Virus record (IMG/VR): IMGVR_UViG_3300042314_000343
Span: 39,318-103,317 of that record
Strand: one strand, 5' to 3'
DNA: 64,000 bases
Origin: a virus
In this document: positions 3,040 to 40,320 of the stretch, piece by piece
Layout: each line of letters starts with the position of its first letter
Numbering within the stretch: the first letter of the stretch is position 1
The notes under the pieces: model-generated
Databases searched by the model: none
Told to the model about the DNA's origin: nothing
Seen by the model: only the letters and a program-made list of their open reading frames with translations
Program-made: the position numbers and the translations under genes

Positions 3040-4863
3040 ATGGCAACAGTCGTAAAAGACTTTAAGATTAAGAGCGGACTGGTTGTTGAGGGTACCACAG
3101 GAACCATCAACACCTACGACATTCTTACAAAGAAGCAAGCAGACCAGGATTACATCATTGGTCTTATCGGTGGCACAGCCACTTCAGAAAACACAGCAGA
3201 CACCGTTGTAAAGCGTGATGAGGATGGCAGCTTTGCTGCTGAAGTCATTACAGCAGAAGGCGGATTTGTTGGTAACCTAACAGGTGACGTAACAGGTGAT
3301 GTATCTGGTAATGCAGGTACCGCAACTGCACTAGAAACAGCTCGCACCATTGAGCTAACTGGTGACGTAACTGGCTCTGTATCATTTGATGGTACATCAA
3401 ACGTTCAGATCTCTGCAACCATTGATGGTGACTTTGCAACTGACTCAGAGGTAGCAACTGCTAAGCAGGAAGCTATTGATGCAGCTGCTCTAGATGCAAC
3501 TTCAAAGGCAGACGCCGCTGAAGAAGCCGCTAACGACTACACAGATGGTCGTGAAACAGCTATCACTACAGCTTACCAGTCTTACGCAGACCAGGCAGAG
3601 CTAGACGCTGTTGCAACTGCAGAGTCTTACACAGACGCTCGTGAGACTGCTATCACAACCGCTTACGAAGCATACGCTGACCAGGCAGAGGTAGACGCTA
3701 AGGCCTACACAGACGCTCGTGAAACAGCAATCACAACTGCCTACCAGTCTTACGCAGACCAGGCAGAAGTAGATGCTAAGGCATACGCAGACCAGAAGGT
3801 TGCAGACCTAGTAGATGGTGCACCAGCACTTCTAGACACTCTAAACGAGTTGGCAGCAGCACTTGAGGACAACCCAGATGTTATTGCTGACCTAAGAGAC
3901 ATTGCTGATGGAAAGCAGGACACCCTAACCGCAGGTGCAAACATTGACATTACAGGAGACACAATTTCTGTAACTGGTCTAGACACCAACGACGTTGCTG
4001 AAGGAACTAACCTTTACTTCACAGACGCTCGTGCAGTTACTGCAAACACTGGTCTATGGGACACCATTGGTGCCGCATCAGACGCACAGGAAGCAGCAGA
4101 GGACTTCGCTACCGCAGCAGACACAACCCTTTACGGAACTGTTACTGGCGACATCGCAACTGCAAAGTCGGAAGCTGGAACAATTGCTCAGGGCTATGCT
4201 AACACTGCAGAGCAGAACGCAAAGGACTACGCTGACGGAATCGTTGAAGAGCTTGACGGCATCGTTAACGACCTAACCACAGACGACATTGCAGAGGGTA
4301 CAAACCTTTACTTCACTGACGGCCGTGCCAAGACATCTGCAGCAGAGCTTCTAACTGGTGCAACCCTAACCAACATTACCATCACTGGTAACGGTTCTGG
4401 TCTAACAATTACCGCAGAAAACGGTGTAGCTGACTCTACCACTGACGACCTTGAAGAAGGAGAGGACAACCTTTACTTCCTAGACTCACGTGCAGTAACA
4501 GCTCTTGAAGCAGTAGTTCCAAACTTTACAGCTGTAGAGTTTAACTCTGTTGCAAAGCAGGTAGCTGCAGAGGCATCAGTCGCAACAGCAAGCACAAGCA
4601 ATGCACTAACATGGGCAAAGGCTGAGTACCGCTCTGCTGAGTTCCTAGTCAAGATCAAGCAGGGTAACCACACAGAGGTTTCCAAGCTAGTTCTAACAAT
4701 GGACGTATCTGACAACATTGCTATCACCGAATACGCAATGGTTGGAACTAACGGAGACCTAGGATCCTACTCTGCTACCGTATCTGGTGACAACGTAGCC
4801 CTAACCGTAACCACCCTAAACAATAACTCTGATGTTATGGTTGTAGGAACACTGCTTAAGTAA
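3040..4863 (+). CDS. Long fibre protein (N2 module, helical repeats, EGxxNLYF repeats, C2 domain)
   Basis: SD AGGAG; ARTIELTGDVTGSVSFDG, APALLDTLNELAAAL and NLYFTxxRA motifs typical of phage fibres. Confidence 0.8.
   Translation: MATVVKDFKIKSGLVVEGTTGTINTYDILTKKQADQDYIIGLIGGTATSENTADTVVKRDEDGSFAAEVITAEGGFVGNLTGDVTGDVSGNAGTATALETARTIELTGDVTGSVSFDGTSNVQISATIDGDFATDSEVATAKQEAIDAAALDATSKADAAEEAANDYTDGRETAITTAYQSYADQAELDAVATAESYTDARETAITTAYEAYADQAEVDAKAYTDARETAITTAYQSYADQAEVDAKAYADQKVADLVDGAPALLDTLNELAAALEDNPDVIADLRDIADGKQDTLTAGANIDITGDTISVTGLDTNDVAEGTNLYFTDARAVTANTGLWDTIGAASDAQEAAEDFATAADTTLYGTVTGDIATAKSEAGTIAQGYANTAEQNAKDYADGIVEELDGIVNDLTTDDIAEGTNLYFTDGRAKTSAAELLTGATLTNITITGNGSGLTITAENGVADSTTDDLEEGEDNLYFLDSRAVTALEAVVPNFTAVEFNSVAKQVAAEASVATASTSNALTWAKAEYRSAEFLVKIKQGNHTEVSKLVLTMDVSDNIAITEYAMVGTNGDLGSYSATVSGDNVALTVTTLNNNSDVMVVGTLLK
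3538..3795 (+). repeat. Three imperfect tandem coding repeats (YTDxRETAITTAYxxYADQAExDA)
   Basis: Units of about 78-90 bp starting near 3538, 3628 and 3706. Confidence 0.85.
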
Positions 4864-5365: not shown

Positions 5366-7330
5366 ATGGCAACTAGAATGCAGCAACGCAGAGGAACTGC
5401 GTCACAGTGGACAACAGCTAACACAATTTTGGCAGCTGGAGAAATCGGTTTTGAGACCGACACCAACCAGTTTAAGATTGGTGATGGAACCACTGCTTGG
5501 TCATCTTTGCCATACTTCAAGAACCTTGAAGACCTAGGTGCTAACCTAGATGACTACGTTCTAGTAGAGCTATTGGGAGAGCCAGAAGGTGTTGCTACTC
5601 TAGATGCAACAGGAAAGCTTACAGACTCTCAGATTCCAGATACAATTCATGGACCTACTGGCCCTACAGGTCCTACAGGACCAATCGGACCTACTGGTGC
5701 AGATGGAGAAATGGGTCCAGAGGGACCACAGGGTGAGACTGGAGACGACGGTGCTGTCGGACCAACAGGCCCAACTGGACCGCAGGGTACAGATATTCAC
5801 TTCGCAGGATCAGTTGCTGACGTAGCAAGCCTGCCATCAAGCGGTAACGAAGTAAACGATGCGTACATTGTTGACGCTGACGGAAACCTATACGTATGGA
5901 ACGGAACTTCCTGGACTGACGCTGGTCAGATTGTTGGACCGCAGGGAGATACTGGTCCTACTGGACCAACGGGGCCAGAGGGTCCACTAGGTGGAGTATT
6001 TTATGTAAGTGCAACACAGCCTACAACTACGGTTGACGGTTCTGTTTGGTTCCAGGAAGGAACTGGACTATCTTATGTTTATGTTGCAGATGAAACTTCT
6101 TGGGAATTGCTAAACATGTTTGGACCTACTGGTCCACAGGGACAGGTTGGGCCAACTGGACCTCAAGGTGCTACTGGAGATACTGGACCAACAGGGCCAG
6201 TCGGAAATGTGGGTCCTACAGGGCCAATCGGTGCTACAGGACCACAAGGTGACCAGGGACTTCAGGGTGCTCAGGGTGACCAGGGTGACCTAGGACCAAC
6301 AGGTCCACAGGGAGAAATGGGGCCAACAGGACCTCAAGGATCTCTAGGACCAACAGGTCCACAGGGTCCTACAGGACCAATCGGACCAACTGGACCAACT
6401 GGTGCTGACTCTACCGTAGCAGGACCAACAGGTCCTACAGGTGCAACTGGTCCACAGGGTGTTGCTGGTGAAGACTCTACTGTTCCAGGTCCTACAGGAC
6501 CAACTGGACCTACAGGACCACAGGGATCGTTCGGTGGTGCAACATTTGACTACACCTATGACTCTGAAACAAGCCACCCAGAAACGCTGCCTGATGGAGT
6601 TCTAAGGCTGAACAACGCAGACTTGACACTTGCCACGGCACTCTACATTGACTTCCTAGATGATGCATCAGTAAACGTCTACAACTTCTTGCAGACAATT
6701 GATGACTCAACATCTGCAGTTAAGGGGTCATTTAAGCTTTACAAGAAATCCGCCCCAGATGACTTTGTGTTCTTTAACATAGTCGGAGAGCACACTCATG
6801 TCACAGACCACTTTGACGTACCAGTTGCGTATGTTACTGGATCTGTTTCAAGCTTCTCAGACAACGAAGATGTGTTGATCACATTTGCAAGAACTGGTGA
6901 CATTGGTGACACTGGACCTACAGGTCCAACAGGACCAGCAGGAGCTACGGGACCAACAGGTCCACAGGGAAATGCAGGACCAACAGGTCCAACTGGACCA
7001 GCAGGTGCTGACTCCCCAACAGTAGTCTCAATTGTTTCTGCAACTGACAACTATAGCGTAACAGCAGCAGACAAGAACAAGATGGTTAAGATCACCTCTT
7101 CTTCTGCTAAGACAGTTACCTTCCCAACTATATCTACCGAACCAACTCTTGAGGTAGGCATGACCTTTACAATTGCTCAGATGGGAACTGGAAGACTAAC
7201 AATGACTCCAGCATCATCAGCAGTTGTATACACCACACCAGGAAACAAGACTAGAGCTCAGTACTCAACTGTATCTGCACTCTACCTTGGTTCTAACGAA
7301 TGGCTAGTCTCAGGAGATTTGGCGGTATAA
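5366..7330 (+). CDS. Collagen-like fibre with Mtd_N-type N-terminal domain
   Basis: QRRGTASQW...[18 protein letters not shown]...W..LPY (Mtd_N/hyaluronidase N-terminus); four Gly-X-Y tracts rich in GPT; C-terminal beta domain ending W..SGDL. Confidence 0.9.
5651..7010 (+). repeat. Gly-X-Y collagen repeats in four tracts, dominated by Gly-Pro-Thr
   Basis: Direct translation; synonymous codons vary between repeats. Confidence 0.9.
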
Positions 7331-7333
7331 CAT

Positions 7334-8413
7334 ATGTTTAGAGATATATTTAGAGGTTCACTATCATCAGCTTTCCGAAAGGTAATCGGAACAGCAGGAT
7401 CTAACCCATTTAACGATGACTTTAATCGTACAGATGGTTCTATTAATCCAGCTGAAGACGGTGGAGTTTGGCAGGCTATAAGAGGAACCTTTCAGGTTTC
7501 TGGAAACAAGGCATCATCTCTAAATGACTCTAACTATCCAATCGCAGCTGTAGACTCGTTCACATCAAACGTTGACGTTGACATCAAGGGAACCACTGGT
7601 GCAGGTGCTGCACTTTGGGTAACGGATTCTGGAAACTGGTGGTCAGTGGGAGCGGTACAGACATCTGAATCATGTAACTGTACAGAATACTACAACAGCT
7701 ATACATACACATATTACTACACTTACATCTCTGGATACAACCAGGGAAACTGTGTAAGAAATAATAATGACTGCTGTGCCTCAAACTACTGCCTATACTA
7801 TAGCGGTGGAAACTGTGCAGCCTACGAATGTGTGGCATACAATACCTCAAACTGCTGTGGATTTAGCTGCTATGGCTACAATGCCTACAACTCTAGAAAC
7901 AAGACTGGTGGAAACTGTATGGGTAACTTCTGCTCTTGCTATAATGGATCTAACTGTGCTGCAACTGGATGCTCGGCCTATAACCCAATCGTATGTGGAC
8001 AGTACGCCTGCTCTGACTACACGTCTTGCAACAACTGTGCAGAGTACAACGCTGGAAACCCTAACTATGCAGAGGCATCTGCAAATGCAACTGGATACAA
8101 TGGACCATACTACAGCTGCCAGACATGCTACCCTAGCTACATCAGGGTATTCCAGTCCGCATCAAACGTGGTAACAACCATGCTAACTCAAGCAGTTAGT
8201 GCAGTGGTTCAGTCACTAAAGGTAAAGACCAACGGAAACCAGATAACTGTAAAGGCCTACTCTGATGCAAACCAGGTCACACAGATTGGTAGCGACATTG
8301 TGTACACTGCTACTGGTGCAGCGATTGCTCCTAGATTTGGAATCACAGTTGTGCCTAGCTCTTACGGACAAACCTACAACGTTGACGAAGTCACAATAAC
8401 ACCAAACTCGTAG
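7334..8413 (+). CDS. Putative receptor-binding/fibre-tip protein: beta-sandwich with Cys/Tyr/Asn-rich insertion
   Basis: FNDDFNR N-terminal and RFGI...VDEV C-terminal lectin-like strands flank 22 Cys between aa 114 and 265. Confidence 0.6.
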   Translation: MFRDIFRGSLSSAFRKVIGTAGSNPFNDDFNRTDGSINPAEDGGVWQAIRGTFQVSGNKASSLNDSNYPIAAVDSFTSNVDVDIKGTTGAGAALWVTDSGNWWSVGAVQTSESCNCTEYYNSYTYTYYYTYISGYNQGNCVRNNNDCCASNYCLYYSGGNCAAYECVAYNTSNCCGFSCYGYNAYNSRNKTGGNCMGNFCSCYNGSNCAATGCSAYNPIVCGQYACSDYTSCNNCAEYNAGNPNYAEASANATGYNGPYYSCQTCYPSYIRVFQSASNVVTTMLTQAVSAVVQSLKVKTNGNQITVKAYSDANQVTQIGSDIVYTATGAAIAPRFGITVVPSSYGQTYNVDEVTITPNS

Positions 8414-8451: not shown

Positions 8452-9150
8452 ATGAAAATTTTTAAGGTGTTTTCCAGGCCAGGCCTGAGAGATTGGGGCA
8501 AGCCTCAGCCAGCAAAAGGCTTTGTGCCAGAGTGGTATCGCCAAAGCGAAAACACTTATGTTAGCGATAAAGATCCAAGTAAGAAGGAAAATGCAGGATT
8601 AAAAAAGTGCGTACCGCTTCTGGATGCACTTGTTTCTGGATACATGCTGACCATCCCAGTAGACATCTATGTAACTAAAGACGAAGATGGAAATCCAAGA
8701 TTTAGCTGGAATGGGCCACAACAACTTTCTGGGTTTGTAGATGAAAGATCTCCACAGCTAGGAAAGCTTATGCCAAGGCCAGCAGGCCATCACCCAAACC
8801 ACCTAGTATTCAGTGGTTTTTGGGGGTACAAAACTCCAAGAGGTTGGTCATCACTTATTGTGCATCCACTAAACAGGTTTGACCTACCATTCACTATCTC
8901 ATCTGCAATAGTAGATAGTGACGACTTCAATTCACCAGGAAATATTCCATTCTTTATAAAAGAAGGTTTTGAGGGGGTTATCCCAGCAGGAACACCATTT
9001 GCACAAATCATACCAATAAAGAGATCGTCGTGGACCCTGGTAGATGACACAACTGGCATGTCAGATGTAGAGCCTGTTCAGGCAGTGTTGGTTAGGCAAC
9101 CAGAGACACTTTATAAAAAGATATACTGGAGAAAGAAGGACTACCGCTGA
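8452..9150 (+). CDS. Conserved phage protein, DUF6065/dUTPase-fold-like, paralog 1
   Basis: PEWY, KKCVP.LD....GY, KTP.G.S....HPLNR.DLPF, VDSD, IPAGTP..Q.IP.KR shared with 9560 gene. Confidence 0.6.
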   Translation: MKIFKVFSRPGLRDWGKPQPAKGFVPEWYRQSENTYVSDKDPSKKENAGLKKCVPLLDALVSGYMLTIPVDIYVTKDEDGNPRFSWNGPQQLSGFVDERSPQLGKLMPRPAGHHPNHLVFSGFWGYKTPRGWSSLIVHPLNRFDLPFTISSAIVDSDDFNSPGNIPFFIKEGFEGVIPAGTPFAQIIPIKRSSWTLVDDTTGMSDVEPVQAVLVRQPETLYKKIYWRKKDYR

Positions 9151-9563
9151 TGGCAAATCCAAAAAGAAGAAAATCAGAGAGAAAGCTTGTAGTCAACGTA
9201 CCAGGAGATGTCAAGAGAATAACCACTCTTGACCTTATAAAGATGGCAGTCCTTAAGTCACTTGATAGCAAAAAGGCCAAAAAGTCTGTAGTCTCTGAAA
9301 ATGGAATTATGCCAGACATGAGCAGAATGAACGACATCTCTACGCTAGCAATAGTTGTAGATAATGAAGTCGTAGATGTAATGAGGGCACAGCCTAGATT
9401 ATCATCAATACTTTTGGCAGAGCCAAAGTTTGTAAAGATTAACAAGGAAGATGGCGGAGTTAGAATTGGAGATAAGTATCTGGATGGAAAGTTTGTCCCT
9501 CAAGATGACAAAGTTGACATTAACCTAAATCCACAAGAGTTTAAGCTAGGAGAGACGCAGTGA
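9150..9563 (+). CDS. Hypothetical protein, possible fibre assembly chaperone
   Basis: AIVVDNEVVDV...V.IGDKY.DGKF pattern; coupled to both neighbours. Confidence 0.45.
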   Translation: MANPKRRKSERKLVVNVPGDVKRITTLDLIKMAVLKSLDSKKAKKSVVSENGIMPDMSRMNDISTLAIVVDNEVVDVMRAQPRLSSILLAEPKFVKINKEDGGVRIGDKYLDGKFVPQDDKVDINLNPQEFKLGETQ

Positions 9564-10228
9564 AAATAAGAGGAAAAAACATAACCTTTCATTCAGATAA
9601 AACTGAGTTTGATTTGCCAAGACCTGCTGCAGCAAGTCGTTTTATTCCAGACTGGTTTAGAACCATGCCAGGCGTGATTGACAGAGTTGAAACAGTAAAG
9701 AAGTGCATTCCAGTTTTAGACTCGCTAACTTTGGGGTACATGATTCCTCTGCCAGCAGATGTTATGTATGAGCCAGAGTCAAAGCAGATAATCTCAAATG
9801 CGAAGTTTAAACTTAACAGCGATCACGTGCCAGTGCAAACACAAAATGTAGCTTTGCCAGACCACTTTGACCCACAGCCACACAAGTGGGTTAACTCCTG
9901 GTATATCAAAACACCAAAGGGGTATAGCACTCTATTCGTTCACCCACTAAACAGGCTTGATCTGCCATTTCAGTCATTCAGTGGAGTGGTTGATACCGAC
10001 AAGCACCCCATTGTTATTAACTTTCCGTTTGTAATTCGTAAAGACTTTTCTGGTATAATACCAGCAGGGACTCCAATGATTCAGGCAATTCCATTTAAAA
10101 GAGACACTTGGGATAGCAAGGTAATTGACGAGAACGAGTCGTATTCATACGAGTTTGCAAATGCAAATCAAGATGCACCACTAGCATGGTATAAGAGGAA
10201 TATATGGAACAAGAAGACCTATCGTTAA
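9560..10228 (+). CDS. Conserved phage protein, DUF6065/dUTPase-fold-like, paralog 2
   Basis: Same motif set as 8452 gene. Confidence 0.6.
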   Translation: MKIRGKNITFHSDKTEFDLPRPAAASRFIPDWFRTMPGVIDRVETVKKCIPVLDSLTLGYMIPLPADVMYEPESKQIISNAKFKLNSDHVPVQTQNVALPDHFDPQPHKWVNSWYIKTPKGYSTLFVHPLNRLDLPFQSFSGVVDTDKHPIVINFPFVIRKDFSGIIPAGTPMIQAIPFKRDTWDSKVIDENESYSYEFANANQDAPLAWYKRNIWNKKTYR

Positions 10229-11646
10229 AAACGATCTACGTAGCAATCCCGTCACTATATGACGCAGAGCTGGCAAGAACAATTGCCGACGCATTTGCCA
10301 AAGCTGATCACCCAGAAAGGGTATTTGTTGGAGTAGCAATCCAGGACGACAATCAAAAGATTTTTAAGCAGCTAAAGAAGCTGTACAAGAACAACAAGAA
10401 TGTAAAGCTGTCCTTTACAAAGCTAACATCAAAGAACGTACTTGACGAGCTTGGGGTTGGTACAGGAAGAGCAAAATCACATTCCATGTACAATGACGAA
10501 GACTATGTTCTTCAGATTGACTCACACACTATGTTTGAGCAAGGATGGGATGCCATACTTGTTGATCTTCACCTAGAGGCAGTAGGAGAGATACAGAACG
10601 ATAAGATTGTTCTTACCGCATATGCTGGTCACTACTTTTTAGACAAAGACGGAGAGCGAACTGTAGAGCTTCCAGAAGGATTCTCGGCAACCCAAAAATT
10701 CTTTTATTCTCTTTACGCACAGTTTCAAAGACGGTACGGAGTAATTCCAGCAGCGTCTATGGTTGACTTCGCAACTATAACAGACGCCGACAGAAGACTT
10801 TTCCCAGCATCAAAATTTAGTGCCAACTTCGCATTTGGCAATAAAGAGTTTGCAAAAAACTTAGGACTAGACCTAAAAGCGGTGTTTTTTGAAGAAGAGG
10901 TTATCCAGTCTGTCAATCTTTTGTCATCAGGATTTAGCCTAGTATTTCCAAACATTGAAAGTGCACTTGTTCGCCACCTATACACTAAGGCAGGGTCAAA
11001 GCCAGAGCTTAGAAAGTCGTCAGCTGATTATCTAACTCAAGAGCAAGAGCGTCAGCTAAATCTAAGACAGCAGGAGAACTATCTGTCATTTTTGGCAGAC
11101 GAGTCTCTAAAGGAATACCGTGAGTCTTATGAGAGATACTCCAACATAAGCCTAGAGCTTGGAAGGCAGTCAGCATCTACTCTGCACCCATCAACCTGGA
11201 CTATTGACGCAGTAAGATACGACTTAATAGTGCAGGAATATCAGGATAGACTAAGAAGTCGTAACGTTGATGCAGCAGCTACTGAAGCTTCGGCACCAAC
11301 TTCTGGTAACGAAGATGGTTGTAACTGTAAGACTAAGCACAACGCTACTGAAAATCATGAGGGACACAGTCACGATGAGGTAGTTGTAGAAGAGCAGTCT
11401 GGTGAGCAAGGAGAGCAGGCAAAGCCTAAAGTTGCAAGGCCTTGGGACCTTCTAAATCCAAATATTGGTAGGGTAAGCGATGAAGTAAAGAAGCTTAGAA
11501 TGGACTACTGCAACGGCTGTGAGTTTTTCATCTCCCTTACACAGCAATGCACAAAGTGTGGATGCCACATGCCTTGGAAGACAGGTTTGCCACACGCATC
11601 TTGCCCAGTTGGAAAGTGGGACGCAGTTCCAGATGAAGGTAACTAA
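10204..11646 (+). CDS. GT-A glycosyltransferase (GlcNAc-transferase, GT60/PF11397-like) fused to a C-terminal Cys-cluster domain
   Basis: IYVAIPSLYD.E...T...AF..A.HPERVFVGV..Q, YNDEDYVLQIDSHT.F..GWD, ANFAFG; C-terminus CxxC...CxxCGC...CPVGKW. Confidence 0.75.
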   Translation: MEQEDLSLKTIYVAIPSLYDAELARTIADAFAKADHPERVFVGVAIQDDNQKIFKQLKKLYKNNKNVKLSFTKLTSKNVLDELGVGTGRAKSHSMYNDEDYVLQIDSHTMFEQGWDAILVDLHLEAVGEIQNDKIVLTAYAGHYFLDKDGERTVELPEGFSATQKFFYSLYAQFQRRYGVIPAASMVDFATITDADRRLFPASKFSANFAFGNKEFAKNLGLDLKAVFFEEEVIQSVNLLSSGFSLVFPNIESALVRHLYTKAGSKPELRKSSADYLTQEQERQLNLRQQENYLSFLADESLKEYRESYERYSNISLELGRQSASTLHPSTWTIDAVRYDLIVQEYQDRLRSRNVDAAATEASAPTSGNEDGCNCKTKHNATENHEGHSHDEVVVEEQSGEQGEQAKPKVARPWDLLNPNIGRVSDEVKKLRMDYCNGCEFFISLTQQCTKCGCHMPWKTGLPHASCPVGKWDAVPDEGN

Positions 11647-12328
11647 TTTACTTGGAGATGCTACAAAGCTAAAGGTTGACTCAAATAGTGTTGACCTTGT
11701 AATAACTCACCCACCATATATTGGCATAGATGTAGAGCGTTATGGAGGAGATCCAGCTAGTCAGATTAACTTTTCACAAAACGAAAAGAACGTCTTAAAG
11801 CTTTTCAAGAAAGCCTTTTTAGAAGTTGAACGGGTATTACGTCCAGGGGGAAACTTAATCTTGGCTAACAACCCAAAAGGTGGTTTTGACGCAAAGCTTA
11901 TGGTCCAAATTATTAAGACAACCAACCTACAGTTTTCATCCTACTACGCACAACACTCAGACGAGCCACATAAGAATATAACCGTTTGGCAGCACTACAC
12001 TAAGGGAATTCAAAAAGGATTCTCTAGCTTTATTGGAACCAAGCGTTACGGATCAACAAAGATAGAGTGCGATATCAATAACGAAAAAGACCCAGTAGAC
12101 ATGCAGCTGGCAAAAGAAGGTTTTCACATATTTGATGCCATGCACAAAGATGTACCAACAAAGTTTATAAATATGTTTTCTGAGGATGGTCACGTAGTCT
12201 TGGATCCGTTTGGTGGTTCTGGGATTGTTGCCGTAACAGCTGCCCAACTAGGCAGGGTAGGGATTACTAATGATATATCAACCAAGCAGTTTGAAGCTGC
12301 ACAAAGAAGAATGGAGCTAAGTCTATGA
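11633..12328 (+). CDS. N4/N6 methyltransferase-fold protein (beta order) with atypical HPPY motif; start revised from 11519
   Basis: SVDLVITHPPY, RVLRPGG, VLDPFGGSG; ATG 11633 in frame, overlapping the upstream gene end. Confidence 0.7.
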   Translation: MKVTNLLGDATKLKVDSNSVDLVITHPPYIGIDVERYGGDPASQINFSQNEKNVLKLFKKAFLEVERVLRPGGNLILANNPKGGFDAKLMVQIIKTTNLQFSSYYAQHSDEPHKNITVWQHYTKGIQKGFSSFIGTKRYGSTKIECDINNEKDPVDMQLAKEGFHIFDAMHKDVPTKFINMFSEDGHVVLDPFGGSGIVAVTAAQLGRVGITNDISTKQFEAAQRRMELSL

Positions 12329-13386
12329 AAGTAGCCGTATATACAATAGCACTAAATGAGCGTCAATTTGTACAAAAGTGGTACGACAGTGCCAAGGACG
12401 CAGACTACCTTCTCATAGCCGACACAGGCTCCTCTGACGGCACAAAAGAGCTTGCAGAGTCTTTAGGTATACACGTTATTGATGTATCCGTAAAACCGTG
12501 GAGATTTGATGATGCAAGGAATGCATCGCTAGCAGCATTGCCATCAGACATTGATTACTGCATAGCTTTAGATATGGACGAAGAGCTACAGCCAGGATGG
12601 AAAGAGTCTCTAGAAAAGGCATACGAGTCTGGTTGGAGTAGGCCAAGATACAACTACACCTGGTCTTGGAACCAGGACGGTACTCCAGGACTACAGTATG
12701 GTGGAGACAAGATTCACACTAGAAAGAATTACCGCTGGAAGTTTCCTGTGCACGAAGTCCTGACGGTTTATGGACAGGAAGAGACTCAGGGTTGGATAGA
12801 TCTAGAGATTCACCATCACCCAGACAGCTCTAAGCCTAGAAGCCAATACTTGCCATTGCTAAAAATGTCGGTACAAGAAGATCCTTACAACGATAGAAAC
12901 GCTCACTACTATGCCAGAGAGCTATACTTTTATTCAATGTTCTCCCAAGCAGCAGATGAGTTTAGAAGACACCTTGCTCTACCTGGTGCAACCTGGAAGC
13001 CAGAGAGGGCAGCCTCAATGAGATACCTTGCTAAGTGCGAGCCATTAAATGCTGAGCACTGGCTAAAGCTTGCGATAAATGAAGCACCAGATAGAAGAGA
13101 AGCATACGTAGAGTTGGCAACCCTCTACTACAAAGACAAGAAGTGGGAGCTTTGCAAACAGGCTGCAGAGTCCGCTATTCTCATAACAGAGAAGCCTTTA
13201 GAGTATCTAGTAGAAGGATTTGCTTGGGGTTCAACGCCATATGAGCTTGCTGCCTATGCTGCCTATAACCTGGGGGAATTCCAGAGGGCGTACGACTTAT
13301 CAGAGATGGCATATAAAACTAATCCAAATGACGAAAGGCTCAAGAAAGAGCTAGACGCATACGCACTAAAACTAACAGCAATCTAA
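12325..13386 (+). CDS. GT2 glycosyltransferase with C-terminal TPR repeats
   Basis: IALNE, DTGSSDGT, WRFDDARN, LDMDE (DxD), VHE, followed by TPR-like helices. Confidence 0.9.
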   Translation: MKVAVYTIALNERQFVQKWYDSAKDADYLLIADTGSSDGTKELAESLGIHVIDVSVKPWRFDDARNASLAALPSDIDYCIALDMDEELQPGWKESLEKAYESGWSRPRYNYTWSWNQDGTPGLQYGGDKIHTRKNYRWKFPVHEVLTVYGQEETQGWIDLEIHHHPDSSKPRSQYLPLLKMSVQEDPYNDRNAHYYARELYFYSMFSQAADEFRRHLALPGATWKPERAASMRYLAKCEPLNAEHWLKLAINEAPDRREAYVELATLYYKDKKWELCKQAAESAILITEKPLEYLVEGFAWGSTPYELAAYAAYNLGEFQRAYDLSEMAYKTNPNDERLKKELDAYALKLTAI

Positions 13387-26815: not shown

Positions 26816-29800
26816 ATGGCTGATATTGAGTCAAATATAAGAATAGATATTGATACCACAGACGCTCTGTCTGCTATCAAGAATCTGCAAAGACAGATAT
26901 CAGCCTTTCACAGCACAATGCAGCAGTCTGGCAACGCTGCCAATGCAGCCATCTCTGATGGCATGCAAAGAAACTTAGTCAATTCGATTAATGCCACAAA
27001 GAAGTTCTCTGCATCTATGGTGGATGTAAAGGGCAGTACAGAATCTTTTACTACTGCTCTTGAAAAGAACAAGCTCTCCCTTGGACAATACTTTAGGTAT
27101 GCTGGGGCATCTACAAAAACCTTTGGAAGACTCTTTACAAATGAGTTTAACACTATTGAGAAGGTTGCTAGAGAAAGAGTAAAGACCCTACAGACCCAGT
27201 ATATCAAGATGGGTAGAGATGCCAACGGTGCAATCCAAGCAATCAAGGTTAGGCCACTCGCCCTTGACATGGAAAAGCTTGGTACTCAGGTACAGATAGC
27301 AGCCCAGAAGCAGCAGATATTTAATCAGCTTCTAAAGCAAGGTTCTACAAACCTTCTAAACTTTGGTAAGAATACTCAGTGGGCTGGTCGTCAGCTTATG
27401 GTTGGTTTTACTGTACCACTTAGCATGATGGGTGTAGCTGCCGTAAAGTCTTTCATGGAAATGGAAAAGGCAGTTCTAAAGTTCCAAAGAGTCTATGGAG
27501 ATCTTGGCACAACTGCTGGCGATACCGAGAAGATGATCAAGCAGATCGAAAAGCTAGCTAATAGCTTTACCAAGTATGGTGTTGCAGTAGCAGACACAAT
27601 GTCTTTGGCAGCCGATGCTGCAGCCATGGGTAAGACTGGTGCCGATTTGTCTGCACAGGTATCTGAAGCAACCAGGCTAGCAATTCTTGGTGGTGTAGAG
27701 CAAGCTCAAGCACTTGAGACCACTACATCACTTACAAACGCCTTCGGCGTTGCAACAGAAGATCTGGCAAATAAGATAAACTTCTTGAACTCCGTTGAAA
27801 ACCAGACGGTAACATCCATTGAAGACCTAACCATTGCTATTCCAAAAGCTGGTCCAGTTGTTCAGCAGCTAGGTGGAGACGTAGAAGATCTAGCATTCTT
27901 CCTAACAGCAATGAAGGAAGGTGGGATTAATGCCTCTGAGGGTGCTAACGCACTAAAGTCTGGTCTAGCATCTCTAATTAATCCAACTGGAAAAGCAAGC
28001 GAGTTTTTGCAAACTTTTGGCATAAACGTAAAGAACATTGTAGACTCAAACAAGGGTGACGTTAAGGGGCTAGTTCTAGACTTTGCATCAGCACTAGATA
28101 CCCTAGATCCACTAAACCGTGCTCGTGCCATTGAGCAGATGTTTGGTAAGTTCCAGTTCGCCCGTATGTCAACACTATTCCAAAACGTAATTGCCGAGGG
28201 TAGCCAGGCCTCACGTGTACTTGACATGACAAAGGCATCAGCCCAAGAGCTAGCAATTCTATCTGAACGAGAAATGAAGAAGGTAGAGAATTCTCCAATG
28301 TTTAAGTTCCAGAAGGCATTGGAAGATATCAAGGCATCTCTAATTCCTTTGGGAGAAGAATTCCTAAAGTTGATCACACCACTTGTTGAGTTTGGTGTAG
28401 ATATGCTTAAGCAGTTTAACAATCTTGATGCAGGGGTTAAGCAGTTTGTTATGGGTGCTGTTGGTGTCCTTGGCCTAATAGCACCAGCAGCAATTATGAC
28501 CTTTGGTCTTTTTGCCAACGGTATCGCAAACATCATCAAGGGCGTTAGCTCTGTTAGCAAAATGTTCTACAAGCTTGCAGGTGCTACATCAGATGCAGCT
28601 GGCCCAATGGGATACTTTACCCAAGAACAGCTAGAAGCTTCAGCAGTGGCTGCCTCGCTTGAGCAGGTACACTCAAACCTTACTCAGCAATTTACATCAG
28701 AGACTTTTGCAATCCTAGGGCTAAAGGATGCTTATCACCAAGCCATTATAGCTATTAACGAGTACAGTGCCGCATCTTCACTTGCAAGAGCAGCAGCAAC
28801 TCCAACCCCATCAGTAGCACCTCCAATCTCAAAGGTTCCTGGTTCACGTCGTGCACAGTCACCTGGAGGAAGTCTTCCAGGGTATGCTTCTGGAATTATC
28901 TCAGTACCAGGACCCAAGGGTGCTGGAGATGTTGTTCCATCTTTGCTCTCTCCTGGAGAAGCCGTCATCCCTGCCGATGTTGCTAAGAAAAACCGTGGCT
29001 TTATCGCAGCAATGATTGCTGGAAAAATTCCAGGCTTTAATGGTGGTAAAGTTGGGTTCGACGGCATGGGGGACACAGAGAAGTACAAGGCACAGGAGTA
29101 TATTGATTCAATCTCAGCAGCTTTACCAAATGGCGTAGAGATTGTTACAAAGGCTTTAGATCGGGCAAGAGAAGACCTAAAGCTTACCTCAGCTGGATTG
29201 CTAAGAGAGATGTCTGTTGTTGCAGAGCAATTTGGGGTTGGCTCATCAGAACTTCTTAAGGCAGCTGGATGGACAAATGATCAAATTGGAAAAAAGCGTG
29301 GCTCACAGCAAACAGAAAATATTCAAGAGCAGTGGGCAAGAGAAAGGGGGTCGGTAGGAGAGATAGAGGCAAGAAGGGCATCGGAGGCATCAGCTACTGG
29401 AAGAGATGCAATAAGAGATTTCCACATGTCGAACGGTATGACTGAAGAAGAGGCTTTGAAAAAGGCTAATGCTCAAACACACAATGCAGGTTCTGTAAGA
29501 TCCCACATCGTTGATGTTGGACCTAACGCAAAGTTTGCAGCAAACAAAGAGGCATTTTCTACAAGCGTTACCACTGCACAGTCTGATCTTGCAAATAACT
29601 TTTTAACCAACCTAATAGATAGACCAACTGGCAAGAAGAGGGGAAGCTTTGATGCCATGCAGGAAGCTATCCGTAGTCCAGAAGCAGGCATTGATCCTGC
29701 AATGCAGGACGCAATATTGGAAAAGATTGAGACCGATATAGCATTAACAGAGCAAGAGCTTATTGAGCAGGGTAAGGCCATAGACCTTATTCTTACAAAA

Positions 29801-32800
29801 AGAAGAGATCTTATTGCCCAGGGCGGAGCCGCCTTTGAGTCGCAACTTGTTGGAATGTCGGCAGAAGCAAAGTATTATGGATCTCAGGAAAGAATTGCAG
29901 GGGTTGGAGATAGAACTCCACAAGAGCTAGCAGCTGGAAAAGCCGCAATTAACAAGGTAATGTATCGTGGCAACCAGCAGTATGCAGAAACAGAAAACCT
30001 TCCACGAATTGGAGCAAAGCTAGCAGACCCAACCGATCCAAAAGACGTTGCCCTGATGAAGCAAAACGGCGTTGACCTAGTCAAGGGAATGGATCTTGGT
30101 ATTAGGGAAGAGGGAGAGCTAGCTTCACCTTCGAAGAAGATGTTCCGCAGCGGTGCTGACCTAGTTAGAGGCCTTGTCAATGGAGTCAAAGAAGGCTACG
30201 ATGAAGCCAACCAGGTTGGAGATCAGCTAGGAGATGCTATCATAAACGGGGCAAGACCAGACGGACTTCCACCAACTCTGCCATCAATTCCAGGTTTCCC
30301 AACCACACCAACTCCATCATTTACGCCACCAGCTAGTGATGCTGCATCGGTTGGAAAGAATATTGGAAAGAAACTCTTCAAGGGTATTGATGACAAGCTA
30401 TCTGACCTATTTACAACTGGTGCTCTTTCAAACACAGCTCTAGGGCAGGCATTTAAGAATAACGCAATCTCAAATGCACTTGAGTCTGGCGGATACAAGA
30501 ATGGCGTAATCCTTACAGACAGCAAGGGCAATGAGGCTGACAGAGCAAACGTCAATCCTGCTGTAGGAGCTGGCTCTGCTGCAATGATGGCAGCTAGCAT
30601 AAACAATGGGAACGACAACCAGTTAGCATTCGACGCTGATGGAAACCCTATTGTAGATAATAAGGGCAGACAGCTAACTCAGCAGCAGCAGGAGAAGAGT
30701 CTTAAGAAGCAGGCATCTGCACAGAAGCGTGGTCGTATGGCAGGAAAGGCCATGGGTGCCCTAGGAACCCTAACGATGGTTTCTGGAATGGCATCTGGCA
30801 TGGGCGGCCCAATTGGAGACATTGCTAGTGCGGCAACCCCATTCCTTGGTGCACTCTCTGCTATTGTGCCACTTCTAATGGCTTTGCCACTACCAATTGC
30901 AGCGGTAGTTGCTGGACTAGGACTAATTGCTTTTGGATTGTACAAGCTTAACGAAGGCCTAATGAAGGCAAGAGAAGAAGCCACTAAGATGGCAAAAACA
31001 TTCTCTTCTGGTAGAGAGGCAATGGATGGCCTAGCTGAATTTGCTGGAACTGTAAACCCTTCTGAGGCTATGGACAGGATCCGTGCTGAGCGTAGAGTTC
31101 CATACCAAATTGTAACTGGTAAGAACACGTTTGGTGCAGAATATCTAGAGTCTGAGGCTGGAAAGAATCTTATAGATCAAGCAAGGACTGCCAAGCAAAA
31201 TGATGGCGGAGCAGCAGCATCCAAAGCTTTGGCAATTCAGCTTTCTCAAGCTATTGCCTCAAACGTTCTTACAAAGAATCAGGCGGCTAGCATTGCAAGC
31301 AATGTTGGAGAAGCACTGGGAGATTACGACTTTGCTATAGACGTTAACGCAACAATGGTTGAGCTGATTGGTCCAGGAGGAGAAGACCTAACGAAGGATC
31401 CTCTAGAAATTCAGGCTAGAATTATTGAGGCAAAGCAGGAAACACTTACCCAAACTGGTGGAGCAAAAGAGCTAATCGATGCGACAAACAAAGACATGGG
31501 TATAGACGGAAGGCAGAATTATACAGAGGTTGCTGCAGCAGAAGCTCAGGTCTCTAAAGCAATTCAAGACATTGCAGACATGGGCCAACAGAACCTGGAC
31601 ACACTAGAGCTTGAGCATTTAAAGAGGCTAGAGGTTCTTGAGGCAGCTGGAGACCTAGCAGGAATAGAAAAAGAAAACAAAAAGTTTAACCAGGACAAGC
31701 TTGATGTACTTAACACTACATCGGCTGCTCTAAAAGAAGAGGCTGCATATCTAGATAAACTAGAGGGCCAGGGCGGAGCAAGACGCAAGTCTGCAGAACA
31801 AATTGTTGACAACATGGAGAACTCGTTTGAGGCACTATTTGCAAGTGCTGATGAGGCAACAAAAAAGATGGCGACCAGGGTAGTCGAAAACATCTCTGAC
31901 CAAGCCAACTTCTCCTTCTCTGCCAAAGCCGCAATTCTTGCAACAATGACTGTAGACAATGTAGACCTATTTGATAGAGTCCAGACACTATTCGATCCAG
32001 ATAATGCAAAGAATGATGTTGTGTGGAATGGTATTGCCAACATGTCACTTGAATTTGGCAAGGGCATGACAGAAGACATGCTCGCAATACTGCCAGGATT
32101 CTCTGACGTAAATAAGGCAGGAAACTTCATTGATTATGTACTTAGGCTAAAAACAGAGGGCGGCCCAGAATCATCAGATGCAGCATTGCAGACCATGACA
32201 GCTTTGAGCAAGCTAAAGACATTTGATAAGGACGGAAAAGAAAAGCCAATAAGTCTAGATCAGTATGTGGATAAGGATGGAAAGGTTACAGAAAAATTTA
32301 AAACTCTAACCAAAAACATTAAAGAGATGAACACTCTCTTCTCAAAAAACAAGGGTAAGAAGATTACCTATGAGATGATGTCCAAGGTGACTGGTCTAGA
32401 CCTTAGCAAAGAGGCACAGGCATACTTCAACAGCCTACCAGCAGACCAGCAGAAGATTTATACGGAGACATACCTGACAGTTCTAGACACCATAGATCTT
32501 AGCACTGACGAAGGAAAGGCTAGAGTTAAGAAGTACAGGGCAGATGCAAACCTTATTGGTGGAACTGTAGCAAACTATACAGCTGGGCTAACGGATTTGG
32601 AAGTTGCACAATCAATTGCAAGCGGAGACGCTTACCAAAAAACCGAAGAATCTAAGGGTATCACAACCGTAGAAGAAGAGGAAGAGGAAGAAGAAGATAG
32701 CGGCGGAACCAAGACCGATCCATACGAGAATCTACTTTCAAGACTAAAGAGAGTTAGAGATGCAGCCATAAATGCAGCTGGAGGAATCTCTGAGCTAAAC

Positions 32801-34594
32801 AAGGCATTGGCAAAGGGAAGCACTATTGCAAAGGGTCTGTTCCGTGGAGTAAGTCAACAGCTAACTATGGCAGGGTACAGTGCTGAGTTCATTGATGACA
32901 TGATGGCACTTGATGAAGAGCAACGCAAGAAGTTTATGACTGTTGATAAAAAGGGTAAGGTAACCGTTACAAAGGACGGTAAGGCTTATCAGGAGGGCTT
33001 GCGTGAAGCAGCCATTGGAGAGTACCAGGATTCCGTTGTTCGCTCCACCGCAGATCTTGGCTACCAGTCCGAAGCATTTGACAAGCTAGTAAAAAATGGT
33101 ATGTCTACTGCAGATGCAATGGAAGTGGCATCAGATGCAAATATGGCATATGCTATAGCTACAAACGCTTCTACGACAGAAATTAAAGACATGGTAAAGT
33201 GGCTAGAGAAGCAGGCTAAGGCACAAAGAGAGCTAGACTTCAAGACCGCAGCAGGCCGAGAGAAGATCGTATCTGGAGCAACCTCTAAGGTTAGCGAATA
33301 CTTTGCTGCTCAAGAAGCCAAGGTTAACAAAGACTTTGAGAGCGGAGCAAACACTAGCGGAAGAAACACTTCTGGATTTAACATTGGTAAAACTAGAAGC
33401 GAAATAGAAAAGGCTCAAGACGAGATTGCGGATTACCAGTATGAGATTGATGACATACAGTACCAGCTAGATGGAATTGCCAAGGCAGAAGACGAGATAA
33501 ACAAGAGGTACGAAGAGCGAGTTGAGGCACTAGAAAACATTTGGGAAGCAAACAGCGACATTATGGAGCAGCAGAAGGGCCAGCTCTCTATAGCTCAGGC
33601 ACTAACATCTGGTGACGTTGCAGCAGCAGCAAAGGCAATGCAGGAAGAGCAAGCCAGAGCTGCAGATAGAGCAAGAGAAGAGCAGAAGGCTGCTCTAGAA
33701 AAGTCAAAGGAGCTAGAGCTTGCTTCTGTAAGGTCTACTAATGGAAAGACCAGGGTAGAGCTAGAAAAGAGCTTGCTAACGCTTCAGGAAAAAATAGCGA
33801 AGATTGAAGAAGAAAGAGTAGAGCCAGCAGAAAAGATTGTTAAGGCTGCAGAGCGAGCTAAGGCACTAGCTATTGAAGCAGTCGGGGAAGCTGGCTATCT
33901 CGGTCAAACAAAGAAGGCTTGGGAGAATGTGGCAGATGCTGCAAGAAACGCTACCGTAGAGTCTGAGGAGTTTGCAAAGTCAATTCAGGAGGCACTAAAG
34001 GCTATTCCAGGATTCACAGAAGTGCTTGATGCAAACGGTAAGTTTATGTCATTTAAGTTTGATCCAAAGGCATACTCAGCCTGGCTAGGAACTCCAGCAG
34101 AAGGCTCTGGTTCAGGTGCAGCCAGCAATACCGTCGTTGATAAAGAAGCTTTGGCTGCAATTAATACAAAGATTGCAAATGCAGAGCGTTACAAGGCTAA
34201 TATGGAGAAGTTGGGCAGGTCGGCAGAGGCAGCAGGAGCCCAGGCAAAACTAACTGCATACTATGCTGAGCGAAAGAGAATTCAGGGTCTTTCAAAGGGT
34301 GGAATGGTTGTGCCAAAGTACTTTGCCTCTGGTGGATTTGCAATGGGAACAGATACTGTCCCAGCCATGCTCACACCAGGAGAATTTGTAATGAGCAACT
34401 ATGCGGTAAAGACCCACGGTATTGACAAGATGAGAGCAATCAATTCAGGAAGAACAGTTGGTGATTCAGTGTATAATAGTTATGAGTTGAATGTCAATGT
34501 TAAATCAGATGCAAACGCAGACGAAATCGCCAGAGCAGTAATGACCCAGATTAGACAAGTAAACTCTCAGCAAGTAAGAGGAAATAGGTTCTAA
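26816..34594 (+). CDS. Tape measure protein
   Basis: 2592 aa, Ala/Lys/Glu helical, TP901-type TMP core, hydrophobic segments, position. Confidence 0.95.
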   Translation: MADIESNIRIDIDTTDALSAIKNLQRQISAFHSTMQQSGNAANAAISDGMQRNLVNSINATKKFSASMVDVKGSTESFTTALEKNKLSLGQYFRYAGASTKTFGRLFTNEFNTIEKVARERVKTLQTQYIKMGRDANGAIQAIKVRPLALDMEKLGTQVQIAAQKQQIFNQLLKQGSTNLLNFGKNTQWAGRQLMVGFTVPLSMMGVAAVKSFMEMEKAVLKFQRVYGDLGTTAGDTEKMIKQIEKLANSFTKYGVAVADTMSLAADAAAMGKTGADLSAQVSEATRLAILGGVEQAQALETTTSLTNAFGVATEDLANKINFLNSVENQTVTSIEDLTIAIPKAGPVVQQLGGDVEDLAFFLTAMKEGGINASEGANALKSGLASLINPTGKASEFLQTFGINVKNIVDSNKGDVKGLVLDFASALDTLDPLNRARAIEQMFGKFQFARMSTLFQNVIAEGSQASRVLDMTKASAQELAILSEREMKKVENSPMFKFQKALEDIKASLIPLGEEFLKLITPLVEFGVDMLKQFNNLDAGVKQFVMGAVGVLGLIAPAAIMTFGLFANGIANIIKGVSSVSKMFYKLAGATSDAAGPMGYFTQEQLEASAVAASLEQVHSNLTQQFTSETFAILGLKDAYHQAIIAINEYSAASSLARAAATPTPSVAPPISKVPGSRRAQSPGGSLPGYASGIISVPGPKGAGDVVPSLLSPGEAVIPADVAKKNRGFIAAMIAGKIPGFNGGKVGFDGMGDTEKYKAQEYIDSISAALPNGVEIVTKALDRAREDLKLTSAGLLREMSVVAEQFGVGSSELLKAAGWTNDQIGKKRGSQQTENIQEQWARERGSVGEIEARRASEASATGRDAIRDFHMSNGMTEEEALKKANAQTHNAGSVRSHIVDVGPNAKFAANKEAFSTSVTTAQSDLANNFLTNLIDRPTGKKRGSFDAMQEAIRSPEAGIDPAMQDAILEKIETDIALTEQELIEQGKAIDLILTKRRDLIAQGGAAFESQLVGMSAEAKYYGSQERIAGVGDRTPQELAAGKAAINKVMYRGNQQYAETENLPRIGAKLADPTDPKDVALMKQNGVDLVKGMDLGIREEGELASPSKKMFRSGADLVRGLVNGVKEGYDEANQVGDQLGDAIINGARPDGLPPTLPSIPGFPTTPTPSFTPPASDAASVGKNIGKKLFKGIDDKLSDLFTTGALSNTALGQAFKNNAISNALESGGYKNGVILTDSKGNEADRANVNPAVGAGSAAMMAASINNGNDNQLAFDADGNPIVDNKGRQLTQQQQEKSLKKQASAQKRGRMAGKAMGALGTLTMVSGMASGMGGPIGDIASAATPFLGALSAIVPLLMALPLPIAAVVAGLGLIAFGLYKLNEGLMKAREEATKMAKTFSSGREAMDGLAEFAGTVNPSEAMDRIRAERRVPYQIVTGKNTFGAEYLESEAGKNLIDQARTAKQNDGGAAASKALAIQLSQAIASNVLTKNQAASIASNVGEALGDYDFAIDVNATMVELIGPGGEDLTKDPLEIQARIIEAKQETLTQTGGAKELIDATNKDMGIDGRQNYTEVAAAEAQVSKAIQDIADMGQQNLDTLELEHLKRLEVLEAAGDLAGIEKENKKFNQDKLDVLNTTSAALKEEAAYLDKLEGQGGARRKSAEQIVDNMENSFEALFASADEATKKMATRVVENISDQANFSFSAKAAILATMTVDNVDLFDRVQTLFDPDNAKNDVVWNGIANMSLEFGKGMTEDMLAILPGFSDVNKAGNFIDYVLRLKTEGGPESSDAALQTMTALSKLKTFDKDGKEKPISLDQYVDKDGKVTEKFKTLTKNIKEMNTLFSKNKGKKITYEMMSKVTGLDLSKEAQAYFNSLPADQQKIYTETYLTVLDTIDLSTDEGKARVKKYRADANLIGGTVANYTAGLTDLEVAQSIASGDAYQKTEESKGITTVEEEEEEEEDSGGTKTDPYENLLSRLKRVRDAAINAAGGISELNKALAKGSTIAKGLFRGVSQQLTMAGYSAEFIDDMMALDEEQRKKFMTVDKKGKVTVTKDGKAYQEGLREAAIGEYQDSVVRSTADLGYQSEAFDKLVKNGMSTADAMEVASDANMAYAIATNASTTEIKDMVKWLEKQAKAQRELDFKTAAGREKIVSGATSKVSEYFAAQEAKVNKDFESGANTSGRNTSGFNIGKTRSEIEKAQDEIADYQYEIDDIQYQLDGIAKAEDEINKRYEERVEALENIWEANSDIMEQQKGQLSIAQALTSGDVAAAAKAMQEEQARAADRAREEQKAALEKSKELELASVRSTNGKTRVELEKSLLTLQEKIAKIEEERVEPAEKIVKAAERAKALAIEAVGEAGYLGQTKKAWENVADAARNATVESEEFAKSIQEALKAIPGFTEVLDANGKFMSFKFDPKAYSAWLGTPAEGSGSGAASNTVVDKEALAAINTKIANAERYKANMEKLGRSAEAAGAQAKLTAYYAERKRIQGLSKGGMVVPKYFASGGFAMGTDTVPAMLTPGEFVMSNYAVKTHGIDKMRAINSGRTVGDSVYNSYELNVNVKSDANADEIARAVMTQIRQVNSQQVRGNRF

Positions 34595-39826: not shown

Positions 39827-39828
39827 CG

Positions 39829-40320
39829 ATGACTTCATCTAGCACATCTGTATCTTCTGTCCCACAAGCACCACAGACTGCAAGAGTGTACTCAGTTGGA
39901 AGCGTAAAGGCTGCCACCCCAGACGTTGTCAAGGCGGTATCTGATATCCCAATAGACTCTGGGCAGATGGCACAAATGATTTTAAATGATATTGGTGGCC
40001 AGGAGTTAATATCAATTTCTAGAAGCGATATCGTTAATGGTCAGAACATCGTATACCAACCAATATCCGACATTAAAGAGATTCACAAGGCATATAACTC
40101 TAGCAACATTATATATTTGTCAGAGACATCCGAAAATGTTTTTAATAGTTTTCCAATAAAGCTAAGCTCAAAGATTCCAGACTCATTGGGAAATAACGTT
40201 TCGTACGCCGACAACAAGATCCTCATTCAGCTCAAAGATATTCAGAGAGATGAGCTAGTAGAAATCCAAGTCGTGTCGTCTGGAGTGCTCCTTGATGATA
40301 CAATATATACAGGAGAATAA
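39829..40320 (+). CDS. Hypothetical tail-associated protein
   Basis: SD GGAGGT; synteny. Confidence 0.55.
   Translation: MTSSSTSVSSVPQAPQTARVYSVGSVKAATPDVVKAVSDIPIDSGQMAQMILNDIGGQELISISRSDIVNGQNIVYQPISDIKEIHKAYNSSNIIYLSETSENVFNSFPIKLSSKIPDSLGNNVSYADNKILIQLKDIQRDELVEIQVVSSGVLLDDTIYTGE

Follow-up and report, generated by a model that had tools for sequence, protein, structure and literature searches.

Positions 7334..8413 of the window, that is, the 64,000 nucleotides (nt) from position 39,318 to 103,317 of the IMG/VR virus record IMGVR_UViG_3300042314_000343, carry a gene for a protein of 359 amino acids (aa). We consider it reasonably probable that this gene encodes a fibre-associated adhesin, in which a concanavalin A (ConA)-like body bears a long hairpin stalk with paired cysteines. 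Such a protein would be part of the virion, project its stalk in an extended form, stabilise it by disulfides and bind a receptor. Comparison of about 250 homologous sequences from metagenomes supported the prediction of a global two-armed structure with Cys partners on opposite arms.

The cysteine ladder and probable pairing between its arms

Translation of region 7673-8128 on the + strand yielded 152 aa from the middle of the open reading frame (ORF), with 22 Cys, 26 Tyr and 26 Asn residues. All 22 cysteines of the protein were located within aa 114-265 and none outside. The initial annotation, made from the letters of the DNA alone, had described 152 aa with 22 cysteines, a 13-residue period and a 15-residue tip loop, and all of these features were reproduced by translation. 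The 13-residue unit, C-x4-C-x2-Y-N-x2-N, occurs in about five copies. No DNA-level tandem repeat was found in the 7673-8128 region, and the periodicity therefore exists at the level of the protein. The gene and the parts of its product are listed below.

7334..8413, + strand: gene of the Cys-ladder protein, 359 aa; according to the ORF list it starts 4 nt past the stop of the fibre gene
7334..7666, + strand: aa 1-111, a disordered N-terminus (aa 1-14) followed by the N-terminal half of a ConA-like beta-sandwich; predicted local distance difference test (pLDDT) of 80-97 from aa 21 in the AlphaFold2 (AF2) model
7667..7750, + strand: aa 112-139, left basal stem with the C114-x-C116 anchor and a Tyr/Thr-rich strand; AF2 strand 112-135, pLDDT 84-94; its length co-varies with that of the right stem
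7751..7870, + strand: aa 140-179, left ladder arm with nine Cys (140, 147, 148, 153, 161, 166, 174, 175 and 179)
7871..7915, + strand: aa 180-194, tip loop YGYNAYNSRNKTGGN, the sole part of the insert that bears Lys or Arg
7916..8038, + strand: aa 195-235, right ladder arm with nine Cys (195, 200, 202, 208, 213, 221, 226, 232 and 235)
8039..8128, + strand: aa 236-265, right basal stem with a small-residue strand and the C262-x-x-C265 anchor; AF2 strand 243-265, pLDDT 90-97; a 12-aa indel is paired with one in the left stem
8129..8410, + strand: aa 266-359, C-terminal half of the ConA-like beta-sandwich, from a YPxYIR motif onwards; AF2 pLDDT >90, with fold matches

The gaps between successive cysteines amount to 1, 23, 6, 0, 4, 7, 4, 7, 0 and 3 residues on the left, 15 at the tip, and 4, 1, 5, 4, 7, 4, 5, 2, 26 and 2 on the right. 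When the full list was compared with its mirror image, the mismatch was 17, as against 69 for a direct repeat and a mean of 66 for shuffled lists (p = 8.5e-5). Restricted to the inner ladder, the corresponding values were 13, 19 and 29 (p = 0.004). The outward spacings claimed before, 4,7,4,7,4,7,23,1 on the left and 4,7,4,7,4,8,26,2 on the right, were recovered when two extra Cys per arm were omitted.

Two database searches returned 163 and 280 relatives of 237-585 aa, the latter number referring to clusters at 50% identity. All of them are unnamed proteins known from metagenomes or from uncultured phages; BFVD lists members of the family only as uncharacterised proteins of uncultured Caudovirales. 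The protein itself matched no Pfam or PHROG family and no PDB sequence, and a tblastn search of 50,697 GenBank phage records gave no match. Across the family the flanks are constant (about 109 aa at the N-terminal and about 95 aa at the C-terminal side), and the insert, measured from the first to the last Cys, ranges from 69 to 389 aa. Charged residues account for 4.5% of the inserts overall. Lys and Arg together make up 10% of the tip loops versus 2.6% of the whole inserts; the loops comprise 8-15 residues with recurrent motifs such as YNAYNS[KR]NKTGGN. Around the insert cysteines, the consensus is Asn at -1, an aromatic residue at +3 and Asn at +4. Shorter homologues lacking the insert were looked for, and only fragments were found. 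Two Cys-poor members, P0068 and P0070, contain about 173 aa of Cys-free 10-11-residue repeats of the NYG[IV]TGG type with five Cys on either side.

Among the 208 full-length members with at least eight Cys, the number of cysteines was even in 204 (range 8 to 46), and in 191 the spacing was fitted better by a mirror image than by a direct repeat. The different types of spacing form a palindrome in long members: P0093 reads 15, 7x6, 4, 4, 4, then a central 7, then 4, 4, 4, 7x6 and 15, and P0094 and P0081 are alike. Neither periodicity alone nor inversion at the DNA level can generate such an order. A first correlation of arm lengths (r = 0.97) was withdrawn as evidence, because its centre was set by the middle Cys and the measure was partly circular; a test on Cys-free stems was substituted. 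In 44 proteins with the arrangement CxC-[X]...[Y]-CxxC, stems X and Y occurred in 13 different combinations of length, ranging between 12/12 and 68/64, and the two lengths correlated with r = 0.98.

When the 19 closest relatives were aligned, the same coupling appeared at the level of single events. Five proteins had a left stem extended by 12 aa, and it was exactly these five in which the right stem, too, contained an insert of 12 aa; Cys-bearing inserts of 12 and 13 aa were found on both arms of the same two proteins. The only unpaired indel, of 7 aa, was situated in the tip loop. Variable Cys columns showed identical presence and absence across the arms for 162/215, 175/202, 168/209, 166/208, 169/205, 148/226 and 178/201. 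Over seven sub-clusters with 75 variable Cys columns, 53 had a twin on the opposite arm, only 2 had one on the same arm and 20 had none; 15 of the 16 pattern classes with two members were split one per arm (binomial p ~3e-4, calculated by hand). Furthermore, 14 of 15 one-to-one pairs stood at equal rank (+/-1) when counted from the two ends. Co-varying partners are separated by 27-78 residues and all lie about a single centre, a pattern other than the sequential interleaved connectivity of granulins. Co-variation, rank and even counts thus agree in placing Cys partners on opposite antiparallel strands at matching levels, as in a cystine ladder. The initial annotation had proposed that homologues should gain or lose units on both arms together; this was found, including for the 12-aa units of the Cys-free stems.

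Lectin-like base and predicted structure

The AF2 model, calculated from 73 sequences, reached a mean pLDDT of 83.5, with values above 90 in the flanks and of 84-97 in strands 112-135 and 243-265 of the basal stem. Its secondary-structure string, as assigned by DSSP, is exactly mirror-symmetric about a residue sum of 377. In its secondary structure the model is a mirror-symmetric hairpin and speaks against a chain of local Cys knots, the outcome that had been named as refuting the proposal. Isolated bridges near the tip at residues 182, 186, 191 and 195 are consistent with pairing of 182 with 195 and of 186 with 191. Both the alternating strand YTYTYYYTY (aa 123-131) and the small-residue strand AEASANATG (aa 246-254), which had been placed opposite each other before, are present, and the register of the model (sum 377) indeed opposes them. 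Taken together with the paired indels and the paired gain and loss of Cys, the mirrored secondary structure supported the proposal of a two-armed antiparallel hairpin with Cys partners across the arms.

The two flanks were predicted to form one ConA-like sandwich, with VIA alignments spanning aa 13-359 and comprising 148-182 aligned residues; the claim that the insert interrupts a lectin-like domain was thereby confirmed at the level of the model, in which the sandwich is built from either side of it. The top five chains of the VIA-align search had Z scores from 15.9 to 14.0 over 148-170 aligned residues, at a sequence identity of 8-15%. Matches included the lectin domain of galactocerebrosidase (Z 15.9), CBM66 (4b1m; Z 15.6, root-mean-square deviation 2.7, 148 residues), the receptor-binding domain of TM4 gp23 (9n6a; Z 15.2, 169 residues) and a baseplate chain of Douge (8zdo_a; Z 14.7). 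Fold matches in BFVD were minor tail proteins of Arthrobacter, Gordonia, Rhodococcus and Streptomyces phages.

Proposed stalk, alternative explanations and known analogues

In the adhesin that we propose, the chain would leave the ConA-like sandwich between its halves, run outwards for about 65-70 residues, turn in a short loop that is basic, aromatic and rich in Asn, and return antiparallel. At the base, the arms would be joined by a Cys-free beta-ribbon of Tyr on small residues (aa 112-135 with 243-265) and by two anchor pairs connecting C114/C116 to C262/C265. Beyond this ribbon, about nine further cross-arm Cys pairs are predicted, giving about eleven in all; co-variation or register suggests 148-226, 153-221, 161-213, 166-208, 174-200, 175-202 and 179-195. 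Disulfides would form after the virion has left the reducing cytoplasm and produce a stiff stalk resistant to proteases and shear. The ladder might then act as a rigid spacer, by which the tip loop and perhaps an aromatic/Asn face are held out towards the host envelope; we take the tip, possibly together with that face, as the predicted binding surface. Stalk length would evolve through paired gain or loss of rungs on both arms. Tentatively, we extend this to a modular, length-tunable "zip-ladder" stalk, which would be a new protein architecture. For this it is possible, though doubtful, that rungs are inserted or lost in pairs, so that arms measure between about 16 and about 190 residues and hold between 4 and 23 Cys pairs, which would set the reach of the basic tip loop from the fibre into the host envelope, and that DUF6065-like and DUF6171-like neighbours serve as folding or oxidation helpers. 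Hypermutation by a diversity-generating retroelement had been considered for the Asn/Tyr/Cys/Ser/Gly-rich composition and was dismissed: there was no reverse transcriptase (no RVT_1 match in the 103-kb record), the 7673-8128 region is single-copy with no template repeat, and the fold is ConA-like, not that of a C-type lectin.

Judged from the sequences, the Cys pairs are most likely disulfides, because cysteines occur in even numbers, co-vary one to one and show no four-fold preference, and because His makes up just 0.1% of the insert residues. Disulfide-stabilised phage virions are documented (PMC10811340, PMC13576161). The simplest assumption is that oxidation takes place after lysis. A dedicated thiol oxidase was considered and set aside. 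The only redox match in the genome was a glutaredoxin-family ORF of 82 aa (window 49494-49664; G000:88811-88981) directly after the DNA polymerase gene, which is probably tied to nucleotide metabolism and not to the Cys ladder. A search for an Erv thiol oxidase gave no match, nor did it in any control genome, and is uninformative.

Several observations weigh against the proposed stalk or its simplest form. Phage assembly takes place in a reducing cytoplasm, and the genome search found no thioredoxin or DsbA gene. In the AF2 model, the pLDDT of the ladder part is just 56-74. One homologue, P0109, has an insert without any Cys, and cysteines are therefore not indispensable. In the genome, the fibre and Cys-ladder genes are positioned upstream of the head module; they are not adjacent to the tape-measure gene and are well removed from the tail-tip genes (35201-41433), which makes a tail location of the protein uncertain. 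As to geometry, the co-varying pairs fall into two registers, with residue sums of 374 and 377, which a flat ribbon cannot satisfy together. Steps from Cys to Cys are odd as often as even across the family, with 5 and 8 being the commonest, and differ from the regular beta-ribbon of theta-defensins with Cys at every second residue; the regular members P0051 and P0041 have steps of 8 and 10 residues, respectively. Because of the two registers and the equal frequency of odd and even steps, a kink or bulge is probable at each 13-residue unit of the ladder part, and so is a length below 20 nm. The length of roughly 20 nm given in the initial annotation thus holds as an upper bound (about 68 residues x 3.3 Å) and not as the actual length. 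Strictly nested pairing, which had also been expected, did not hold either: the adjacent C174 and C175 face C200-x-C202 and appear locally crossed.

The mirror symmetry could in principle be a by-product of periodicity in a string of local Cys-knotted modules without pairing from arm to arm, be it mini-hairpins of the type C-x4-C-x7-C-x4-C or stacks resembling granulin, EGF or TNFR. A 13-residue period makes the series 4,7,4,7 palindromic by itself, pairs 161-179 and 166-174 (sum 340) are arithmetically possible, and the initial arm-length correlation was confounded by a centre defined through Cys counts. We nevertheless regard such modules as very improbable, in view of the co-varying lengths of the Cys-free stems and their paired 12-aa indels, the palindromic order of spacing types in P0093, P0094 and P0081, the distribution of variable-Cys partners (53 on the opposite arm versus 2 on the same arm) and the fit of the AF2 tip bridges to cross-arm pairing. 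Just as improbable is a ladder of metal sites, in which the cysteines bind Zn or Fe, as Cys4 sites or Fe-S clusters, instead of forming disulfides. Axial metal sites are known from phage fibres (T4 gp37, gp12), a C-x4-C facing another C-x4-C across the arms could supply four ligands, and a DUF6171-like Cys cluster is co-conserved. On the other hand, the Cys count was a multiple of four in 94 proteins and not in 110, many members carry a single Cys every 8 or 10 residues per arm, and Cys are gained or lost in twos, one per arm. Metal sites had been mentioned as an alternative in the initial annotation; the counts and the near-absence of His argue against them.

Unlikely, in our estimate, is a trimeric needle, i.e. 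three hairpins bundled in a six-stranded rod with the Cys pairs in its core, partly inter-chain or metal-binding on the three-fold axis. T4 gp37 has reportedly been described by Bartual et al. in 2010 as possessing a tip needle with up-and-back topology. The partner fibre is collagen-like and presumably trimeric, and the pattern of Cys, aromatic residue at +3 and Asn at +4 puts the aromatics opposite the Cys face and would favour their burial. An out-and-back course is indeed shared with the gp37 needle (PMC6957217); however, the family inserts contained no HxH-type sites as in T4 gp37, one-to-one Cys partners deduced from co-variation need no third chain, and monomeric tip adhesins occur on trimeric fibres (gp38, PMC12032242). 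A homotrimer prediction with three copies of aa 27-359 (score 0.10, mark 0.42) counts neither for nor against oligomerisation. It is also improbable that the protein is a fibre assembly or maturation factor instead of a virion adhesin. Genes for tail-fibre chaperones usually sit downstream of the fibre gene; the start of this gene 4 nt after the fibre gene is a conserved arrangement, and the conserved genes further downstream (DUF6065-like, DUF6171-like, glycosyltransferases) look non-structural. It would be hard to see, though, why an intracellular chaperone should carry a projection so elaborate and so variable in length, stapled by Cys and with a basic tip that is conserved, and the closest counterparts of the ConA-like sandwich are receptor-binding and minor tail domains of actinophages.

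With regard to mechanism, the adhesin with a Cys-paired stalk comes closest to cystine-ladder hairpins (theta-defensins, the protegrin/tachyplesin type and the HAP2 motif), with which it has cross-strand Cys pairs in common. In theta-defensins and in the cystine-ladder-like motif of HAP2 from Chlamydomonas, antiparallel strands are joined by serial, roughly parallel cross-strand Cys pairs (PMC6327110). Known cystine ladders comprise 2-3 rungs in 18-37 residues, whereas about 11 pairs in 152 aa are predicted here, and relatives would reach about 21-23 pairs in some 390 aa. Moreover, the rungs of the phage ladder are spaced by 5-10 residues, not 2, the ladder sits within a lectin-type domain, and there is no sequence relationship. 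The base fold is shared with ConA-like receptor-binding modules of phages (TM4 gp23, 9n6a; Douge, 8zdo_a; J-1 Dit CBM2, 5ly8) and with CBM66 (4b1m); these chains align over at most about 150-180 residues, which is about the size of the base alone, at 8-15% identity and with no Pfam match. The stalk of bovine antibodies with an ultralong third complementarity-determining region of the heavy chain (CDR-H3) is a two-stranded beta-ribbon that lifts a binding element off a beta-sandwich domain (PMC8602281, PMC5994613). This analogy, drawn in the initial annotation, is apt for a projecting stalk and fails for the knob: in bovine CDR-H3 the disulfides lie in the knob and each strand of the stalk is about 20 residues long, whereas the phage hairpin would have its Cys pairs in the stalk and ends in a tip loop of just 8-15 residues. 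In position and presumed role, the nearest analogue is gp38 of the T2/S16 type, a monomeric tip adhesin encoded after the fibre gene with an unusual low-complexity scaffold (PMC12032242); it is built on polyglycine helices, unlike the Cys-ladder protein. The needle of T4 gp37 is a rod that runs out and back and owes its stability to a row of cross-links along the axis (PMC6957217), which differ in being His-coordinated iron in a trimer. Neither gp37 nor gp38 has sequence or fold similarity to the protein, and their host is an enterobacterium as opposed to a putative actinobacterial host here.

Full-text literature searches retrieved no description of the family or of its architecture, in line with the earlier claim that no phage receptor-binding protein of this design had been described. 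We rate as new the giant Cys-ladder insertion in a putative lectin-type adhesin of a phage fibre tip. Next to nothing is known about receptor-binding proteins in phages of the dominant freshwater actinobacteria, and the Cys-ladder family provides a defined candidate adhesin. If the ladder is real, the cystine-ladder principle would grow from 3 rungs to more than 20, the family would show how protein length evolves by paired insertions on two arms, and it would offer protein engineering a natural, hyperstable, length-programmable spacer scaffold. If the ladder is also extended, no other protein would be known to have a two-stranded, disulfide-stapled ribbon of such length.

Genome and conserved neighbourhood

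The 103,317-bp IMG/VR record that contains the window was judged 95% complete and has a G+C content of 44%. It encodes an HK97-type portal, prohead protease and capsid, minor tail proteins and a tape-measure protein of 2,592 aa (window 26816-34594), the length of which implies a non-contractile tail of great length. Large Streptomyces siphophages have the prohead proteases most similar to that of the record, and a WhiB-family gene, a marker of actinobacterial phages, is located outside the window (G000:C1:6737-6910). WhiB, the protease and the G+C content together point to a siphophage of low-GC freshwater Actinobacteria as the putative host group.

The Cys-ladder gene belongs to a conserved unit, in which a fibre with a particular C-terminal domain is followed by the Cys-ladder protein and by DUF6065-like and DUF6171-like genes. 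Its members besides the ladder gene are listed here, with counts that refer to 57 related IMG/VR loci.

5366..7330, + strand: upstream fibre gene, 654 aa, with an Mtd_N-type N-terminus (Pfam Mtd_N 2.4e-14), collagen-like G-x-y tracts (Pfam Collagen 6.9e-31) and matches to PHROG tail and tail-fibre families
8452..9150, + strand: DUF6065-like paralogue 1 (phrog_7084 1.4e-35), which follows the Cys-ladder gene in 53 of the 57 loci; AF2 pLDDT 93
9560..10228, + strand: DUF6065-like paralogue 2 (phrog_7084 9.1e-44), with PF19541 in 12-21% of the members of its atlas neighbours; present in 52 of the 57 loci
11473..11619, + strand: DUF6171-like cluster domain CxxC...CxxCGC...CPxGKW (phrog_13558 5.1e-12; PF19668 0.0029, below the cut-off), here the C-terminus of a glycosyltransferase

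The fibre protein has a conserved C-terminal domain ending in ..RAQYS..W.V.GDL. In most of 28 loci examined, the ORF directly upstream of the ladder gene shared a C-terminal motif, ..TPGxKLRAQWSSATL.KR....W.L.GDL, with or without a collagen-like shaft. It is to this shared domain (window 7030-7330) that the Cys-ladder protein probably docks. The DUF6171-like Cys-cluster domain was matched in 51 of the 57 loci, in many of them as a segment of just about 65 aa (about 200 nt), consistent with a separate small gene.

For the DUF6065-like protein encoded at 8452..9150, the best Foldseek matches of the model were to the trimeric dUTPase fold, and weak (E ~1e-4). An earlier reading of this neighbour as a cupin/2-oxoglutarate oxygenase, which would hydroxylate Asn as in EGF domains, was abandoned in view of the weakly dUTPase-like model, and a role of the protein in ladder maturation cannot be claimed. 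Its homologues in cultured viruses are hypothetical proteins of haloarchaeal tailed viruses; in HRTV-8, the one such locus inspected, the gene lies a few genes from baseplate genes.

The cassette at 8452-13386 comprises the two DUF6065-like paralogues, a 137-aa protein, the GlcNAc-type glycosyltransferase with the DUF6171-like CxxC cluster, a DNA-methylase-like protein and a GT2 glycosyltransferase. A second fibre-like protein of 607 aa is encoded at window 3040-4863, with internal repeats of about 90 nt (3503-3791), a duplication of about 300 nt (3979-4328) and PHROG matches to tail-fibre and head-decoration families. Finally, a linker-like repeat rich in Pro, Glu, Thr and Ser, with a period of 12 nt, was observed at window 62853-63065 inside the ORF 61326-63575.

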